Shown: positions 7,588 through 14,998, counted from the first letter of the stretch. The stretch: DNA of 64,000 nucleotides from Candidatus Latescibacterota bacterium (GCA_965223905.1 CBDCXV010000010.1:224001-288000), one strand, 5' to 3'. Notes: generated from the letters alone by a model not told the origin. Numbers and translations are program-made.

Positions 7588-7657
7588 GTTGCCGGCGGAT
7601 CACCTCGGGGAGCCCCATGAAACCCAGCTGCGGAAAAACACCCGAACGAGGAGAGCC

Positions 7658-8611
7658 ATGAATACCCTGCCGCTGTGCGATCCCCACTTCCACATGTGGG
7701 ACCTCGACGACCGCCCCAACCCGAACCTCGGTCCCGAAGCCGAAGAGCTGATGCGGGCTTACCGGGCAGCGGATTACGACGCCGATGCCGCTAGCCTTCC
7801 CCCGCGGCTGAACCTGGTTTCGCGGGTCCACGTCGAAACCGTGGTCGGGCAGATGGAGGGGGGCCCCGTGGTGGACACGGTCTCCGAGACCGGGTGGGTC
7901 TGCGCCCAGCTCGAGGCGACGCAGGCGGAGCGGCCTTCCTACGTGGTCGCCTACCTCAATCTCGCCGGCGATCCCGCCGCGGCCGAGCGCACCCTCGAGC
8001 GGCATATCGAGGCCTCCTCCTCGCGGCTGCGCGGAGTGCGCATGATCCTCAACCACCACCCCGACAACCCGGACCTCACCTGGCCGCAGGTCGCCGGCGG
8101 CGAGCTGATGCACATTCCCCAGTTCCGCGAGGGCCTCGAGTTGCTCGCCGGCCGCGGCCTCTCGTTCGACCTCTCCTGCAATCCCCACCAGATCCCCGGG
8201 GCCGTCAGGGTTTTCGCCGACTTCCCCGGGCTGCGGGTCGTCGCCAACCACCTCGGGTTCCTCCACGACGGCGAGGACGCCGCTCACGAGGAGCTGTGGC
8301 GCGACGGCATCGAGGGCCTGGCGTCGCTGCCGAATGTCTGCATCAAGCTGTCGATGCTGTGGTTCGCCCGCGCCGGGTTTCACAGCGACCCGGGAAAGCA
8401 GGCCAAGGTGCGGGATCTCGTCCGCGAGGTGATCGACGTCTTCGGCCCGGAGCGCTGCATGTTCGCCAGCAACTACCCGGTCGACAAGATTCGCGGGATC
8501 TCGTTCTCGAATCTGTACGGGCTTTTCCTGGACTGGACGCAGGACCTGGAGGAAGACGAGCTCAGGGCCCTGTTCCACGACACCGCGGCGCGCGCCTACA
8601 ACCTCGATTGA
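7658..8611 (+). CDS. Amidohydrolase_2 family protein (sugar lactonase-like)
   Basis: DPHFHMWD, NHLG, IKLS and FASNYPVD motifs. Confidence 0.9.
   Translation: MNTLPLCDPHFHMWDLDDRPNPNLGPEAEELMRAYRAADYDADAASLPPRLNLVSRVHVETVVGQMEGGPVVDTVSETGWVCAQLEATQAERPSYVVAYLNLAGDPAAAERTLERHIEASSSRLRGVRMILNHHPDNPDLTWPQVAGGELMHIPQFREGLELLAGRGLSFDLSCNPHQIPGAVRVFADFPGLRVVANHLGFLHDGEDAAHEELWRDGIEGLASLPNVCIKLSMLWFARAGFHSDPGKQAKVRDLVREVIDVFGPERCMFASNYPVDKIRGISFSNLYGLFLDWTQDLEEDELRALFHDTAARAYNLD
8563..8611 (+). repeat. 49-bp direct repeat, left copy (3' end of the amidohydrolase gene; attL-like)
   Basis: CAGGGCCCTGTTCCACGACACCGCGGCGCGCGCCTACAACCTCGATTGA is identical to 13540-13588. Confidence 0.95.
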
Positions 8612-9085
8612 GCAGGGACACCTAAGACCAAGGGCACCCCATTGCATTCAATTCAATTAGGTAAAGGTCGAGGCGACTTCAAGTGCTAAAGGCACGCACG
8701 GACCAGAATAGATCCCTGAAGATCGTTTGCGGGACCTTTGGCGGGCTCTCAGTACCGTTGGGTTTGCGGCGGGAACGAATCCTTGCCCGTCCCTGGATCA
8801 ACCCGGGACACGAAGGGGCTTTCGGCGCATCGACACGGGCCCCGCCGGTGACAGTCGGCAAGGCAGATCAGATGACCTACTATAACTGAGGCCCCGCCCG
8901 GATTGAGGCTCAGAGCAGGCAGGATCCTCAGGCGACCCCTACATGCCGCCCATTTGTTGACCTCTTCGGAAACACGCACCGGCCTCGACTCATGAAGGTG
9001 TAGATAGGTTTTTTACCCCGTACAGTTAACGCGGTCGCAAGTTTCGCTAGCACCTCGACTGTACCGCCATCATTATTTCCCAGTT

Positions 9086-10480
9086 TCAAGCTGTAGTACC
9101 TGTTGGTCCCCCATGCTCCCAAAGGTCACCGACGACAGGTCCCCGAGGGTAATTCAAACCTGATCGCCGAATGATCGCTCCACGCGATAAAGGAACTTGG
9201 GCCCCCTTCTCGCAAACAAGGTTGAACTGACATGACGCGCAATGCGGCCCAACACATGCGGGAAACCCTTCACTAGCCGCGAGCCGTCTAGCCCACCGCC
9301 TTAACGCAAGTGTTATCTGACGGACGTCTTGCGCTGCAAACATAAACCGTTCCTCCTCACCGGTCGGGAGCATAATTCGACGAGCAATCACCGAACCCAA
9401 ATTGAATTCCAGCAGAACCGCTGCACTGTAAGCTGCAATCTGTAGCCAATCAGGAATCCGGGGCCGGGATGTCAACTCTCGATTCGAGGCTTTATAGTCG
9501 ATTACCTCGATTATGCCTGATGGGTCGAGCGCGACCCGATCGATCCGACCTACAAAGATCATGCCTTCACCTAGCTTCATCCGGACAGCCTTTTCAACGG
9601 CGATCGTTCTGAACTTCTCATTTCGAAACACAACGTCATAGTGAAAGGCTAGTATGTCCCTGCCCGCGTCGTACAGACGTTCTGCCGTGTCACCCTCCAC
9701 CTCATTGGGCAGCGTTTCCGCCAACCTGCCTTTGAACCAGCTAATGACCTCGTCCTTGACAGGGCCGTCGCCCATAGCGCCATACAGCCATGCAAGCGTC
9801 TCGTGCAGACGACTGCCAAGGAACATCTGTTCTGATTCCACAATCTCGGGAACGCGATCAACATATTTCAGCTGGTAAGAAAGGGGGCAAACCTCAAAGG
9901 ATGCCAACTGCGAAAAGGAAAGCTCACTCGGGATGTTGTGGGACCTGTTGTGGGACCTTGTGTTCTTGACATCACACACTGTCTCCCACGCCCAACGAAT
10001 TGCAGACGCAAGGTATGATGGGCTATAGTTCTCCGACGAAAGGGTAAGGTCGGCAGGAACCAGCCGTAACCTGGACTCAGTCCAACGAAGTTGGGACGCC
10101 CACGACCCGCCAGCCTGAGGTCGGCTCCACCCCGAACGCTCCCGAATGCGGCGTATGGCCGTACCGATACTGCAGTCTAGCAGCACAACGAAGGAGGTAA
10201 GTCCATGCAAGCGAATCCGCTCGATGATCTCTTCAAAGTCCCTAGAGGCGCCGCTGCACTCAAAAATGACCGGCGATGAAGACGCCGACGATGTGATTTG
10301 TTCAGCGATGGCAGATGGACATTCTTCAGGAGTATGCAACCGCCGAAAGTCCTCAACGGGAAAGTAGCGTGCGCCCAACGACGATGCGAGCCTCCGACAT
10401 ACCGCGGATTTCCCGGCACCTATTTGGCCGATGACCACAAGAACCGAGTCACTAATACCCTTTAGCTCGTCCCTATGCAT
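9086..10480 (-). CDS. P-loop nucleotide-kinase-like domain fused to a PD-(D/E)XK (Cas4/RecB-like, 4-Cys) nuclease
   Basis: Walker A GQIGAGKS. Nuclease part has SFSQL..FEVCP, GSRLH, GRIDRV, IDYK, QIAAY and HCASCQFNLVC. ATG 10480 overlaps the upstream stop. Confidence 0.85.
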   Translation of the reverse strand: MHRDELKGISDSVLVVIGQIGAGKSAVCRRLASSLGARYFPVEDFRRLHTPEECPSAIAEQITSSASSSPVIFECSGASRDFEEIIERIRLHGLTSFVVLLDCSIGTAIRRIRERSGWSRPQAGGSWASQLRWTESRLRLVPADLTLSSENYSPSYLASAIRWAWETVCDVKNTRSHNRSHNIPSELSFSQLASFEVCPLSYQLKYVDRVPEIVESEQMFLGSRLHETLAWLYGAMGDGPVKDEVISWFKGRLAETLPNEVEGDTAERLYDAGRDILAFHYDVVFRNEKFRTIAVEKAVRMKLGEGMIFVGRIDRVALDPSGIIEVIDYKASNRELTSRPRIPDWLQIAAYSAAVLLEFNLGSVIARRIMLPTGEEERFMFAAQDVRQITLALRRWARRLAASEGFPACVGPHCASCQFNLVCEKGAQVPLSRGAIIRRSGLNYPRGPVVGDLWEHGGPTGTTA

Positions 10481-11387
10481 CGTCGCCCTTAGACCTTGGT
10501 GCTCTAGAGCCAATTACCTTCGACAGTGTGTCGTTGAACAGCTTGTCGGAAAATCCGGCGCCAAACCCAAAAACCACAAAAAACCCAAGCCGGGCAGGGG
10601 CATCATCTGGCAGTTTTATTGGGAAAAAACCCGAGAGCAGCATGGACACGACGAATAGAGCGGCGCATGCCCCAAGACAAGCTCTAGCACCCATGTCTGA
10701 CCTAAAGAGCTGGGAGAACTCATAGCGCACTCGTTCGCTTCGGACACTCTTGAGCCGGGAGAAAACAGCACCCATACCGCCTGACAGGACACCTGATCCC
10801 AGGGACATGAGCGTCGATGCCCAACTCGGGATCTCAAATGTCGAAATCATGAAGCAAACCACAAGCAATACAAGAAGGATGGAAATAATCCAAATGGCCA
10901 GTCTGTTGACATCACGGGTTACAGTTGCACGTTCTTCGTTCAGCCGGTTATATCGTGACGCCGATTCCTGCAACTCCAAGGTAAGTTGCCGTAGGCGCTG
11001 GCGGACGGTCTCCTCTTGAACTATCTGGCCATTGATCGAGATGAGACTTGAGATGTCCTCCTTCCATGCGTCACGTCGGCCCTCGTCAAAGCGGTACAGG
11101 GTTTCCCTGAGTCGCACCCATGTCGGATAAAGCAAGACCTCCGGCTTGAGCAGGCATAGTTCTGCTTCGACCTCGTGGATCGCAAGGACACGTTGGCCAT
11201 GGTCCTCCAGCGTTGAGACCTCCTCCAGCCTGAGCTGAATCTCCTGTAAACGCTCATCAAGACGTTCCCCTTGGGCGGTCAACTGCATTGCTTGCGCTAA
11301 CTCACTTCGCAAACGCGACAAACGCGCATCTAGCTCTGCATCGACTGGCTTTAGTTCGCCCGATCCTGTAGATCTTCGACGCTTCAT
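10473..11387 (-). CDS. Coiled-coil + ~4 transmembrane-helix protein (putative membrane effector)
   Basis: Charged helical N-terminal half, then four hydrophobic segments with GGMGAVFS and FGAGFSD motifs. ATGA overlap with the RT stop. Confidence 0.8.
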   Translation of the reverse strand: MKRRRSTGSGELKPVDAELDARLSRLRSELAQAMQLTAQGERLDERLQEIQLRLEEVSTLEDHGQRVLAIHEVEAELCLLKPEVLLYPTWVRLRETLYRFDEGRRDAWKEDISSLISINGQIVQEETVRQRLRQLTLELQESASRYNRLNEERATVTRDVNRLAIWIISILLVLLVVCFMISTFEIPSWASTLMSLGSGVLSGGMGAVFSRLKSVRSERVRYEFSQLFRSDMGARACLGACAALFVVSMLLSGFFPIKLPDDAPARLGFFVVFGFGAGFSDKLFNDTLSKVIGSRAPRSKGDDA

Positions 11388-12973
11388 TCCGCTACTCGCA
11401 GCAAGGCCTCCCTGAGCTCGAACCCCATCGGGCCCGAGAATGGAACGGTTGGTTCGCTATGGTTGTCTGCCGGCGGGTAAGCGTGTTGTGACTTACCGTC
11501 CGCCATTGCAGGCAAGGCTGCCAATCCACGCACGGTATGGCTGGTGTCTTTGGCAGTGAGTTCAACCAAGAGTCGCCGATGTTCCGGGATGAGCCACATA
11601 AACTCGATTGCAATTCTTCGCGCCATCGGGGACCGTGAATCCGTCAACAGTGGGAAGATTTGTTTCGCGATTGCCGAGCGTTCATGTTTTGGTTGCTGGG
11701 CCATTAAACAGGCATGCAAGAGCACTAAGGCATATGGATGAAGGTTTCCGCAGGCGGAATAAGACATGTCCTTCAGCGCGTTACGAGTGGACACATCGGG
11801 GGGCTGGTCTGCACTGAGAAGCGCATGCAAAAGGCAAATGGATTCGCTGTCCGTCACTGCCCGCGCGATTTGCTTGACTGCTTGGATCCCCGTACCACTT
11901 GGCCAGTTAAGGATGCGAAGGTAGGACGATATTTCCTTTTCAGCGGTTGGGAAACGCGTTAGGTCATCGATGGCTTGTGTGGCTAGTACCGAAGAATGTA
12001 AGTGTGAAGCCAAGGTGTAGATCCTCTTCCACAGTCGGGCGTGTTCCATCGACTGCCCCCGATCCGTCTCGACAAGCTTCTTAAACGCATCACCCTGCGA
12101 TCTTGACAGGGGTCCGCGCGAACTCGCCATCATTAGGCTGGTGACCATTCGGTGTTCGTACGTGAGTACTTGACGTTCGAAAGCCACTAGCGAGCTCATT
12201 ACCCGTGTCTTGCCCTCATTTATCCGAAGTCCTATTGGTTCCAGTGCGGTGGACAGTGCCATCAACGCGCCCTCGACCGCGCCCGAGTCTACGGCGATGA
12301 AAAAGTCGTCAACCCACCTGAGGTGTCCAGCGATTGCCGGCTCGCGAACGAGCTGTTCGTCGACCGGTCCTAGGACAAGGTCCGCTATGATCCAAAACAG
12401 GCTGTCTTGCGTAACGGGGAGTCCCGAACGAGTCTTACCGAGGTGGTCCGGGATGGAATTGATATCTCCGATCGTGTGGAGAGCCCTTTCGATTATCTCT
12501 TCTTCGAGCTGGGCATCCCGTAAGGCGAATTCAATTCTGCAAATCGGGATGGACGCAAAATAGTCTTGGACATCAGCGACAACTACAGTCTTGCCTCCTA
12601 CCAGCATGTGGCGGATCCACATCGGGACGGTATCCGACCAGAGTTCGTAAAGCTGTCCTTCCATACATTTCAGCCACAATTGCGAAGCAGAAACGGAGTG
12701 TGGCAGCGCGAGATCCCGCTCATCCATTTGCTCCGCGATCACTTGGAGAGCTACGGAGGTTACGAAGTCGGGGACCACTTCTAAACGTGTTCCGCCGCCT
12801 TGTTTTGGGAGAGTAATCGACTCCAACTCCACAGGGCTTGACGTGGCGAAGTTGCGTGCCCCGGATTCCCCGTCAAACTCAGCGTAGCCCAGTGGGTCCG
12901 CAAGCAGGCTTTTTGCCCACCTCTGTCGGCAGACCTCAATTGCAGCCAACACATCAGCTATCCTGTTGTTCAT
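11384..12973 (-). CDS. Reverse transcriptase, UG/Abi (DRT-like) type, with alpha-helical C-terminal extension
   Basis: LPKQGGGTR, ADVQDYFASI, GLPVT, RWVDD and GLRINEGKT occur in canonical RT order. Start is at 12973 or 13048. Confidence 0.9.
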   Translation of the reverse strand: MNNRIADVLAAIEVCRQRWAKSLLADPLGYAEFDGESGARNFATSSPVELESITLPKQGGGTRLEVVPDFVTSVALQVIAEQMDERDLALPHSVSASQLWLKCMEGQLYELWSDTVPMWIRHMLVGGKTVVVADVQDYFASIPICRIEFALRDAQLEEEIIERALHTIGDINSIPDHLGKTRSGLPVTQDSLFWIIADLVLGPVDEQLVREPAIAGHLRWVDDFFIAVDSGAVEGALMALSTALEPIGLRINEGKTRVMSSLVAFERQVLTYEHRMVTSLMMASSRGPLSRSQGDAFKKLVETDRGQSMEHARLWKRIYTLASHLHSSVLATQAIDDLTRFPTAEKEISSYLRILNWPSGTGIQAVKQIARAVTDSESICLLHALLSADQPPDVSTRNALKDMSYSACGNLHPYALVLLHACLMAQQPKHERSAIAKQIFPLLTDSRSPMARRIAIEFMWLIPEHRRLLVELTAKDTSHTVRGLAALPAMADGKSQHAYPPADNHSEPTVPFSGPMGFELREALLRVAE

Positions 12974-13400
12974 GAACCTGTCGTAACGTTTCTGGGCTAT
13001 AGCCTGGTTATAGCCGATCGTGAAGGCAAGCGTAAGCACGAGCGGCATCTAGTGCTGCCGGCACATCGCTTGGTCGGGTGCCTTCCTCATCGAGCAGGGT
13101 AGCTGTCGGCGTTTGGCGACGTCGATTCCGAGGGTGTACATGGGACGCTCCCTGCCAAAAAGGGGCTGAAGTTGCCCAAGATCGGGTGACGCTAGCGGGC
13201 ACGTCTTCGTAGCCAGATCAGGGAACTGGGTCCTTGTCGCAGGGGAACCTGCTCGAGGAAAAAATCAGTCAAACCCCAGCAGACTCGCTGGAGACAGGAT
13301 CGCTTCAAGTCCAGAACCAAGCAAGCGCACCTTACGTGCTCAGGTATCCTCGTACGAGGAACGCCCATGGCTGGTTCACTCGTCTCGAAACTTCCGTAGA
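12974..13400 (-). ncRNA. Candidate structured ncRNA upstream of the RT
   Basis: No convincing ORF. Long-range stem 13083-13098/13248-13260, hairpin 12995-13015 and other short stems. The position matches that of DRT-associated ncRNAs. Ends are unknown. Confidence 0.35.
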
Positions 13401-13539
13401 TATCTGTAGGGAAAATAAGCCACTTTTTTGCCCCTCAATCAAAAGCGCTAAACGCACGCACGGGGTCAACTTCGGGGCGGGGTCGACAGCCCTATCCCGG
13501 CTGACAGCGGCGGATCGAGGGCGGATCGGTCAGAGAGGC

Positions 13540-13588
13540 CAGGGCCCTGTTCCACGACACCGCGGCGCGCGCCTACAACCTCGATTGA
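13540..13588 (+). repeat. 49-bp direct repeat, right copy (attR-like)
   Basis: Identical to 8563-8611. Confidence 0.95.
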
Positions 13589-13607
13589 CCTGACCGCCGC
13601 CCCGCGG

Positions 13608-14780
13608 TCACAGGCCCTGCAGCTCGATCTCCTGCTTGCGGTGGCAGGCGGCGACGTGCGGAAACCCGCCCTCGCTGCCGGTCTCCTCGAGCGCCGGCTC
13701 CCGGCTCCGGCAGAGGTCGACGCCGTGCCGGCATCGGGGCGCGAAGGCGCAACCCCCCTCCACCGCATCGGAAGCCCCCGGTTCCCCCGCGGCATCGGCG
13801 TCCTCCTCCCCGGCGACCCTCCAGGGAGCGTGCGGGTCGGGCGGCGGGGGCCGCGTGCAGCAGGGTGGCGGTGTCAGGTTGAGGATCTGCGCCTGCACGC
13901 TGACGTCGAGAGCGGAGACCGGCTCGTCGGCGACGATCAGCGAGGGGCTAACCGCCAGGGCGCGGGCGATGCCGATGCGCTGCCGCTGGCCGCCGCTGAA
14001 GGCGTGGGGGTAGCGGCGGATGTAGCGCGGGTCGAGCCCAACCCGCTCCATCAGCTCGGCGACGCGGCGCTCGCAGCGGCCGCGGTCCCAGCCCCGGGCC
14101 CTGAGCGGCTCGGAGATCAGGTCCATCACCGGCATGCGGGGGTTCAGGGAGGAGTACGGGTCCTGGAAGATCATCTGGATGTCGCGGCGCGCCTCCACGA
14201 TCTCGCCGCCCTCGAGCCGAGCCAGGTCGACCACCTGTCCGTCGCCGCGCCGGAACAGGATGCGGCCCGCGGTCGGGTCGAGAGCGCGCAGTATCAGGCG
14301 CCCGGTGGTGGTCTTGCCGCAGCCGCTCTCCCCGACCAGCCCCAGGGTGTGGCCCGCGTCGAGGCGGAAGCTGACGCCGTCGACCCCCCGGACCGTTCCC
14401 GCGACCCGGCGCAGCAGCCCCCGCCGCACCGGGAAGTGCTTGCTATGGCCCGGCCGCACCGCGGCGCGCCCCGGCATCTCCCGTTCGCAGACCTCCCCCA
14501 CCTTCTCCCGGCAGCGGGGGTGGAATGGGCATCCGGACGGCAGCGCATGGGCGCTGGGAACGCTCCCCTCGATCGGCTCGAGCTTTTCCGCCCTGGCCGC
14601 GAGGTTGGGTATCGAGCGCAGCAGGGCCGCGGTGTACGGGTGCGCCGGGGCATCGAAGATCCTCTCGACCGGGCCCTCCTCGACGACGCGGCCGAGGTAC
14701 ATCACGTAGACGTAGCTCACCGTGTGCGCGACCACCCCGAGGTCGTGGGTGATCAGCATCAGCGCCAGGTCGAGCTCCGC
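13608..14780 (-). pseudogene. Decayed oligopeptide/dipeptide ABC ATPase pair (OppD C-terminus joined to an internally deleted OppF)
   Basis: ITHDLGVV...HPYT...GCPFHPRC is followed by [16 protein letters not shown] and DEPVSALD. The D subunit lacks its N-half and the F subunit lacks its H-loop region. Confidence 0.8.
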
Positions 14781-14998
14781 CGCGGATGGCGCGCATCTCC
14801 CTGCCGCCGGGGTCGAGCCGGGCGAGGTCGACCGCGGATCCGCCGTTCCCGGGCCGGAACAGCATCTCGCCAGCCCCCCCGTCAGGGCCGCCGGAGACAC
14901 GGAGAGGAAACCGGTGAGCCTCGTCCGCTTCCGACGTCCTGTCCTGCCCTGCGGCCCCTCTCGCGGGGCGTGATGCCTGGATCAGTCAATGGCTCCTG

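Follow-up and report, generated by a model that had tools for sequence, protein, structure and literature searches.

A predicted Class 1 UG/Abi-type reverse transcriptase conserved with a membrane protein and a kinase-nuclease fusion

A stretch of 64,000 nucleotides (nt) from a Candidatus Latescibacterota bacterium (GCA_965223905.1 CBDCXV010000010.1:224001-288000), hereafter the window, contains a low-GC islet in which a reverse transcriptase (RT), a membrane protein, and a fusion of a P-loop kinase-like domain with a Cas4-like nuclease are encoded together. We find that these three genes constitute an old, conserved module, that the RT is by its modeled fold a Class 1 enzyme of the UG/Abi type, and that no description of the trio is to be found in PADLOC 2.0, NCBIfam release 20, and the literature searched. 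The explanation that we favor, and hold to be probable though by no means assured, is a Class 1 system akin to the defense-associated reverse transcriptases (DRTs), with the membrane protein and the kinase-nuclease as two dedicated partners. The three genes are as follows.

11384-12952, minus strand: Class 1 UG/Abi-type RT (assigned by fold), 522 amino acids (aa), with palm and fingers at residues ~1-255 and an alpha-helical repeat domain at ~255-480
10473-11387, minus strand: membrane protein, 304 aa, with a helical, predicted cytoplasmic N-domain (~1-160) and a hydrophobic C-terminal region
9086-10480, minus strand: kinase-nuclease fusion, 464 aa, with a P-loop kinase-like domain (~1-175; 9956-10480) and a Cas4/AddB-type PD-(D/E)XK iron-sulfur (Fe-S) nuclease domain (~185-440; 9161-9928)

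The original prediction, made from the sequence of the window, had described three minus-strand genes with overlapping stop and start codons in a low-GC islet bounded by direct repeats, and each of these features was recovered. Three minus-strand open reading frames (ORFs; 11384-13048, 10473-11387, and 9086-10480) fill 9086-13048, and their starts are fixed by public protein clusters; the RT ORF extends to 554 aa, the database protein begins at 12952, and cluster P0001 covers 94%. Read directly in the DNA, the RT stop and the membrane-protein start overlap as ATGA (11387-11384), and the junction of the membrane-protein and kinase-nuclease genes is an 8-nt overlap, ATGCATAG, at 10480-10473. GC content is ~52-59% over 8400-13600 versus 65-75% in the flanks, the genome mean being 63.8%, and the 54-nt direct repeats bracketing the islet are 96% identical, with the final 48 nt identical.

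Searched against Pfam, the reverse TRANSCRIPTASE (RT) gave a weak match to RVT_1 (16.3 bits). The best PADLOC models were RT_UG13a (79 bits), UG33, Drt8, UG36, Drt6, Drt4, UG21, UG9, and AbiP2; for all 30 members of the RT family the best matches were without exception DRT/Abi-type RT models, with RT_UG13a at the top in 30/30. An AlphaFold2 model built from 30 homologs (pLDDT 84.5, pTM 0.84) comprises an RT core and, at ~255-480, stacked helices. Using Foldseek against the PDB, we obtained as best matches UG15/DRT4 (9l9s and 9vdv), DRT6 (9wy8), AbiK (7z0z and 7r06), Abi-P2 (7r08), and AbiA (8oz7), the alignments to Class 1 enzymes spanning 450-520 columns and the TM-scores with DRT6 9wy8 being 0.54/0.56. 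The RTs of group II introns, retrons, DRT2, and DRT9 ranked below Class 1 by Foldseek E-value and fell under all Class 1 matches but Abi-P2 by TM-score (0.30-0.33 for DRT2/DRT9 versus 0.48-0.54 for the Class 1 enzymes, Abi-P2 excepted). The best sequence-profile match in the PDB was a DRT6 chain (E = 1.3e-10), and one RT homolog carries PF13646. Class 1 has been defined by the fusion of an RT to an alpha-repeat (HEAT-like) domain (Mestre et al. 2022, PMC9226505), and the protein encoded in the window has intact polymerase motifs and a C-terminal alpha-helical repeat domain; going by the modeled fold it is a Class 1 UG/Abi-type enzyme, and the fold, the PADLOC UG/Abi models, and the invariant motifs all agree with the UG/Abi type first proposed for it.

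Residues invariant among 30 RT sequences are Tyr102, Asp127, Asp215-Asp216 (the catalytic pair in the WVDD motif, encoded at 12305-12310), and Lys248. The only loop modeled with low confidence in the RT core contains Tyr102, which precedes the catalytic aspartate pair by 113 residues, close to the spacing of 115 in DRT4 (Tyr125, Asp240). Because it is invariant, located in a flexible loop, and spaced nearly as in DRT4, Tyr102 is a candidate priming tyrosine by analogy, and we put it no higher than that; priming tyrosines are described as differing in place among AbiK, Abi-P2, AbiA, and DRT4 (PMC12783706).

At the level of group membership, the RT fits no PADLOC group. Membership in UG13a was considered and rejected: the RT family and its wider relatives score 54-80 bits over profile positions ~159-445 of 589, versus 302-333 bits full-length in UG13a-like proteins, and whereas the latter (~600-650 aa) cover RT_UG13a positions 9-579, the RT family covers the palm and first helices alone. 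A profile search of 1.84 billion protein representatives retrieved 30 at E ≤ 1e-30, after which scores fell to ~110 bits, and UG13a-like proteins (P0262-P0264 and P0267) are among the matches at ~110 bits, below the RT family. From these sequence comparisons we read the family as a separate Class 1 clade beside UG13a. Membership in UG7/DRT8 was likewise rejected, with the Drt8 model scoring 53.6 bits over positions 135-278 of 493 and its best E-value among the 30 family members being 1.6e-19. A retron was rejected as well: no Rfam match was found upstream, retron RTs gave query-normalized TM-scores (TMq) of 0.31-0.36, under Class 1 except Abi-P2, and the upstream DNA is insertion sequence (IS) debris. 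Elsewhere in the genome there is a second, weak RT-like match (G000:C10:1988744-1989151, L009; E = 5.6e-4 to the family profile) with a 445-aa open frame.

The kinase-nuclease matched Pfam PDDEXK_1 (2.4e-29) and, weakly, several P-loop kinase families, and its AlphaFold2 model was of high quality (pLDDT 89.6, pTM 0.88). Foldseek matched the nuclease domain to ACE1 (9iab/9iac), AdnAB, AddAB, Exo5, Cas4 SSO0001, MGME1, and Dna2, so that its predicted fold resembles those of nucleases acting on single-stranded DNA (ssDNA) ends, and it matched the N-terminal domain to shikimate (2iyx), gluconate, and adenylate kinases; in a profile search, shikimate kinase aligned across the entire N-terminal domain. 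Among 35 sequences with identities as low as 30%, the Walker A motif (G..GK), a Glu-Cys-x-Gly motif, two lid arginines, the Asp of GRxDR, ExxDYK, Q...Y, and Cys198 with CxxCx5C are invariant or nearly so, and the invariant residues of the nuclease are Cys198, Cys414, Cys417, Cys423, Asp314, Glu325, Asp328, Lys330, Gln347, and Tyr351. Because the catalytic motifs are thus conserved, both halves look catalytically alive. The nuclease combines the PD-(D/E)XK motif with a four-cysteine Fe-S cluster, as Cas4 does. A true Cas4 of CRISPR adaptation was rejected: the match to NCBIfam TIGR00372 (cas4; E = 9.4e-11) reached 41.9 bits, below the cut-off of 65, no cas genes or repeat array were found beside the islet, and no cas1/cas2, CRISPR array, or Argonaute was found inside it.

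The membrane protein had no family above threshold in Pfam, NCBIfam, or PADLOC, and the Atlas search placed it among unnamed clusters alone. In an alignment of 31 sequences the N-half is helical and conserved and the C-half hydrophobic, the latter with conserved motifs rich in Gly, and with a mean column identity of 50% in the core clade the protein is conserved as much as the RT and the nuclease. Of the four transmembrane segments originally proposed, two clearly span the membrane by hydropathy, exceeding a Kyte-Doolittle value of 1.5, and two further conserved hydrophobic segments, rich in Gly/Ser, are weaker. No SLATT match was detected with Pfam (31 members, E ≤ 0.05) or with PADLOC. Complex prediction for the RT and the N-domain of the membrane protein (1-165) gave a score of 0.09 (mark 0.32) and speaks neither way. 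In a Pseudomonadales genome (L001) that encodes the same module, the membrane-protein gene (L001:9452-10457) is in two frames, 9452-10111 and 9666-10457, and the RT and nuclease genes are intact; the split reflects either a frameshift or a misassembly.

Conservation of the trio was assessed by gene order and by shared contigs. The L001 locus contains the three genes in identical order, with an RT identity of 49%. For co-occurrence elsewhere, the size of the longest contig of each protein cluster was used as a fingerprint and matched between the gene lists, which comprise 47 RT, 87 nuclease, and 82 membrane-protein homologs. Of 46 distinct RT contig sizes, 35 were also present in the nuclease or membrane-protein lists and 16 in all three, and six of the 11 unmatched RT contigs are shorter than 4 kb; chance agreement of so many 4- to 7-digit sizes is unlikely. 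Cluster members gave two extra links, on contigs of 51,220 and 6,438,990 nt, and the NCBI locus tags F4X40_06180 (nuclease) and F4X40_06185 (membrane protein) are adjacent. The association extends to a divergent clade: six of the eight contig sizes of RT cluster P0236, which scores 343 bits against the family profile, are also those of nuclease cluster P0132 (40% identity to the window nuclease), and RT cluster P0231 equals nuclease cluster P0125 in contig size; for the other eight wider RT relatives examined, no partner was seen among the matches listed. By source name, the relatives come from Gammaproteobacteria, Chloroflexota, Gemmatimonadota, Nitrospinaceae, and Thioalkalicoccus, with one RT relative from Methanobacterium. 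The expectation that the three genes would recur together, rather than the RT homologs occurring apart from both partners, is thereby borne out, and the RT, the membrane protein, and the kinase-nuclease are shown to be an old, conserved module.

Structurally, DRT4 (UG15) and DRT6 (UG12) match best, across almost the entire RT, and share the arrangement of an RT core and an alpha-repeat domain; unlike the system described here, they are stand-alone genes, dependent on host exonucleases and lacking a gene for a dedicated effector, and the PADLOC Drt4 and Drt6 models score ~40 bits on the RT family. AbiK, Abi-P2, and AbiA have the same two-domain architecture by Foldseek at ~12-13% identity, but stand alone or, in AbiA, carry a HEPN domain. 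A 2022 paper by Figiel reportedly concerns, as its title has it, protein-primed, template-independent polymerases of the AbiK/Abi-P2/AbiA type. These three enzymes are described in those terms in PMC12632851 also. UG13a is the next group reached by the family profile, and the main text of PMC9226505 names no partner genes for it. DRT8 (UG7) is described as a Class 1 RT with a neighboring PD-(D/E)XK-like nuclease (PMC9226505), whereas the partners here are a kinase-Cas4 fusion and a membrane protein, the DRT8 partner being that of Mestre's cluster 17. DRT10 (UG17) resembles the present system in uniting an RT product, an exonuclease that sets a threshold, and a transmembrane effector (10.64898/2026.04.29.721553), but is a Class 2, noncoding RNA (ncRNA)-templated system with a SLATT effector and a host nuclease, and RT_UG17 scores ~29 bits on the RT here. 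The nuclease domain shares the PD-(D/E)XK fold, four-cysteine Fe-S cluster, and QxxxY motif of Cas4, ACE1, and AddB-AdnA, but is fused to a P-loop kinase-like domain and lies outside any cas or Argonaute context.

Named DRTs in the literature searched reach DRT11 (a UG5 RT-nitrilase), none of DRT12 to DRT14 appearing there, and UG13 in the sense of prokaryotic RTs appears there in Mestre 2022 only. No RT or DRT combined with Cas4, a kinase, PDDEXK, and a transmembrane partner was found in that literature, and neither PADLOC 2.0 nor NCBIfam release 20 has a model for the membrane protein, or for the nuclease as a DRT partner. As had been supposed at the outset, no full match to an RT with this membrane protein and a kinase-nuclease exists in these three sources. 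The novelty is a new Class 1 clade and a new partner set, and no new principle.

The stretch of ~580 nt upstream of the RT, which contains no credible ORF, had been taken for a long structured noncoding leader, and this part of the original prediction does not hold. Relative to shuffled sequences, the 582 nt at 12953-13534 fold with z = -0.84, a value of -0.31 being obtained for the inner 346 nt; Rfam yielded no match at E ≤ 1, and there is no recognizable conservation with the DNA upstream of the RT genes of L001 or of L002, a metagenomic relative. In L001, ~65 nt separate the RT from an upstream Peptidase_C15-like gene. Promoter and terminator scans gave no signal above chance. The islet was also said to hold nothing else of substance beyond the three genes, which is so for genes; remnants of IS91-family and IS110-family elements are also present, as the features of its borders make plain.

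8558-8611, plus strand: first copy of the direct repeat, which is the original 3' terminus of the Amidohydro_2 gene (7589-8611), with its identical core at 8564-8611
8681-8960, minus strand: diverged IS91-family 3' terminal remnant downstream of the nuclease gene, with short matches, consistent in order and orientation, to same-genome copies
13076-13464, minus strand: IS110-family remnant comprising the left noncoding end and ~25 frameshifted transposase-start codons, which makes up most of the supposed leader
13443-13539, minus strand: IS91-family remnant, the transposase 3' end and element end, abutting repeat copy 2, with the transposase piece at 13539 to 13487
13535-13588, plus strand: direct repeat copy 2, with its identical core at 13541-13588; congener alignments begin at 13540

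In a search of the window's own genome, 13464 to 13076 was 73% identical (324/443 columns) to G000:C10:1628596-1629035, which leads into an intact IS110-family transposase (DEDD_Tnp_IS110, 1.9e-26; Transposase_20, 1e-16); in the islet the frame is disrupted past the start, and homology goes no further. The left ends of IS110 elements have a bridge-RNA role, and the left end of the intact copy has no excess of folding (z = -0.99). The IS91-family element, typed by Pfam Y2_Tnp (1.2e-20) and Zn_Tnp_IS91, is present in the genome as more than 40 copies or fragments, most of which lack the 5' part and share a sharp common 3' boundary. Downstream of the nuclease gene, IS91-family matches run from 8960 to 8910 and from 8764 to 8710 (best E = 2.6e-8), and the motif at 8701 to 8681 occurs again at 13463 to 13443. 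On sequence grounds, the upstream stretch is debris of two insertion sequences, and its standing as a component of the system is not supported. IS91/ISCR elements are known for one-ended, gene-capturing transposition, and the islet is cargo between two IS91-family ends with an IS110 stump, so that its transfer can be accounted for by ordinary means. Two congeners have an empty site, at which the amidohydrolase gene continues straight into the ABC-transporter gene and there is one copy of the repeat. Because these congeners have the flanks joined and a single repeat, the islet represents a clean insertion of ~4.9 kb. The 48-nt repeats may stem from a circular IS91-type transposition product that inserted by homology.

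The module is single-copy in its own genome and was not found in any of 60 relatives, 167 other genomes of the phylum, or 400 and 200 genomes around the L001 host. Neither the RT nor the nuclease was found in the plasmid collection, and the nuclease was not found in the phage collection. Scans for the module returned one locus among genome contigs (L001), six among metagenome contigs, of which L002 is the sole close relative and ends after the RT, and none among viral contigs. The module family is thus rare in reference genomes and recurrent in metagenomes, and has therefore escaped defense-island screens. Contigs from public runs contain the islet in two studies, one with 4988 nt identical and one with 4750 nt and 9 differences. 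A 440-nt contig from a natural population joins 8457-8562 to 13540-13874, which is the empty site, and comes from the same sample (run X4) as the variant islet; because islet and empty-site contigs share a sample, the islet is strain-variable in nature, polymorphic among near-identical strains. In the variant's sample, the islet contig has a word depth of 3.1 versus 36-39 for the flank contigs, contig depth being a rough guide. A back-joint from 13531 to 8923 was rejected as a circle junction, since it reaches a depth of 23.4 in X4 where the islet has none, and is read as IS91-family cross-mapping. A 5053-nt database contig holds all three proteins at 99-100% identity and is near the islet (8612-13534) in size; this may reflect excision or circularization of the islet, or simply an assembly that broke off at the repeats.

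The Class 1 enzymes suggest how the three proteins might act together. Members of the class are reported to make untemplated DNA (PMC13174585; PMC12632851), and those studied are protein-primed and work without an ncRNA (PMC13174585, PMC12783706, PMC12632851). DRT4 and DRT6 are described as constitutively producing protein-primed random ssDNA that host 3'-5' exonucleases clear, until a phage DNA-binding protein protects the ssDNA, which then accumulates and leads to cell death (PMC12783706). In DRT10, SbcB restrains the cDNA, the trigger is SSB-like, and the SLATT membrane protein is the proposed effector (10.64898/2026.04.29.721553). By analogy with AbiK, Abi-P2, DRT4, DRT6, and DRT1, the RT of the window, probably oligomeric, would make untemplated ssDNA primed on its own tyrosine, and the operon's Cas4/AddB-type ssDNA-end nuclease would steadily remove or trim that DNA, gated or assisted by the P-loop kinase-like domain. 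A phage protein that shields the DNA or blocks the nuclease would let RT-made DNA build up, upon which the membrane protein, acting by way of its conserved N-domain in the cytoplasm, would damage the membrane and halt the infected cell by abortive infection; the upstream stretch would supply a promoter at most. Such a division of labor, in which the RT would make DNA, the nuclease restrain or process it, and the membrane protein kill, finds support by analogy with DRT4/DRT6 and DRT10, in which the RT product is kept down by host exonucleases. Within a defensive role, the chance that the nuclease is a restraint rather than an effector is about even.

Studies of DRT4, DRT6, and DRT10 suggest constant production of DNA by antiviral RTs, with exonucleases setting the threshold of alarm, and since the nuclease in these systems is a host housekeeping enzyme, the circuit is difficult to isolate. 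If an operon brought its own nuclease and effector, the whole loop could be rebuilt and dissected from three genes, and the catalog of defense parts would gain an RT clade not yet classified, a kinase-Cas4 fusion, and a membrane-protein family without a name. More tentatively, and as less likely than not, we suggest that a new Class 1 clade recruited its own ssDNA-end nuclease and a new membrane-effector family, such that synthesis, threshold degradation, and killing are combined in one 4-kb operon, the fused P-loop domain reading a nucleotide state or modifying the DNA end and the membrane effectors sensing RT-made DNA. If so, such a self-contained DRT could be carried from one bacterial phylum to another, and perhaps to archaea as well should the RT relative from Methanobacterium have the same partners.

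Several points weigh against a DRT-like defense system with two dedicated partners. We infer the defensive role from relatives, and for UG13a, the nearest group, the association with defense is rated "inconclusive" (PMC9226505). The islet is neighbored by an amidohydrolase gene and an ABC-transporter gene and not by a defense island, and of ten large ORFs near IS91-family fragments one belongs to a defense family (TmtA), or 2/11 if a GmrSD_C gene at another locus is counted, the other nine being an AcrB-type pump, a beta-helix protein, a HAD/nucleotidyl-transferase, two DUF6785 proteins, CHU_C, GHL10, an amidohydrolase, and one without a family. Because these neighbors are mostly non-defense genes, the IS91-family context gives no argument for defense. 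Linkage of the trio beyond L001 is a proxy from equal contig sizes and not gene order read in DNA, and the membrane protein may be dispensable, or the L001 copy decaying. A polynucleotide-kinase role is not obviously needed, PD-(D/E)XK nucleases leaving 5' phosphates, and the nuclease may act in either direction, as restraint or as effector.

The last of these points leads to the opposite wiring, in which the kinase-Cas4 nuclease would be the killing effector, attacking phage or host DNA, and RT-made DNA or an RT-DNA adduct would silence or activate it, so that the system would be retron- or toxin-antitoxin-like, with the membrane protein as sensor or anchor and the P-loop domain as a nucleotide sensor gating the nuclease. 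We regard this arrangement as unlikely. Pairs of an ATPase and a nuclease are a common effector design in defense systems, the catalytic residues of the nuclease are invariant, L001 retains an intact RT and nuclease beside its split membrane-protein frame, and the linkage documented in the divergent clade is that of the RT with the nuclease. However, Cas4/AddB/Exo5-type enzymes, which the nuclease resembles by fold matches only, need free ssDNA ends and are poor general toxins, and the membrane protein is equally conserved, at 50% mean column identity, and translationally coupled on both sides. A non-defense cellular role for an accessory RT-nuclease module, for example in a DNA-damage or stress response, we consider improbable: every matching Class 1 UG/Abi enzyme of solved structure is an anti-phage protein and the distribution is patchy and mobile, although a bacterial PrimPol-RT has been reported to contribute to the oxidative DNA damage response (PMC12439943), the link of UG13a to defense is inconclusive, and the islet lies outside any defense island. 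Should the module prove not to be defensive, it would still give the first hint of the partners used by UG13a-neighboring RTs.

Two further explanations concern the islet rather than the proteins. That the leader is a structured ncRNA serving as template or scaffold for the RT, as in DRT2, DRT9, DRT10, and retrons, might be supposed from the absence of a credible ORF over ~580 nt and from the requirement of some described DRTs for an adjacent ncRNA. It is nevertheless very improbable, given the z values of -0.84 and -0.31, the lack of an Rfam family and of conservation in L001 and L002, the mere ~65 nt upstream in L001, and the identity of the stretch as the left end and transposase start of an IS110-family element; structurally, too, the RT stands with the untemplated Class 1 enzymes and not with DRT2 or DRT9. 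We also find it very improbable that the RT and nuclease are the islet's own mobility machinery, a retroelement rather than a defense system, even though the insertion is precise and strain-variable with flanking repeats and no integrase, and an RT with an endonuclease is the classic retrotransposon pair. The L001 module has no flanking repeats, the IS91-family ends on both sides and the IS110 remnant already provide a means of transfer, the fold of the RT is of the Abi/DRT type and includes an alpha-repeat domain, and the genome contains a single copy.

Other observations concern the mobile elements and the surroundings of the islet. Copies of the IS91-family element of ~1.7 kb lie 3-7 kb apart in regions of mixed GC content, for example at C10:343-384 kb, 546-561 kb, and 1.36-1.48 Mb, and further arrays are found at C10 1.60-1.65 Mb, C1:928-967 kb, and C11:525-553 kb; they look like the result of one-ended (rolling-circle) transposition. 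At G000:C10:1626194-1629886 (L016), an IS91-family 3' remnant comes after a GmrSD_C restriction-type gene, and the intact IS110-family element after that remnant. The RT islet and this locus share the IS91-then-IS110 order, with IS110 starting about at the end of the IS91 unit, and this IS110-family element may target the IS91-family end. The TmtA gene (L032, G000:C10:1469447-1474282) is a 1611-aa ORF that scores 534 bits with PADLOC TmtA (Tiamat) and ends exactly where an IS91-family fragment begins. Beside the islet, in a 430-aa ORF at 13608-14900, an oligo_HPY C-terminal domain precedes an ABC_tran domain, which suggests either two adjacent ABC ATPase genes in one frame or a fusion.

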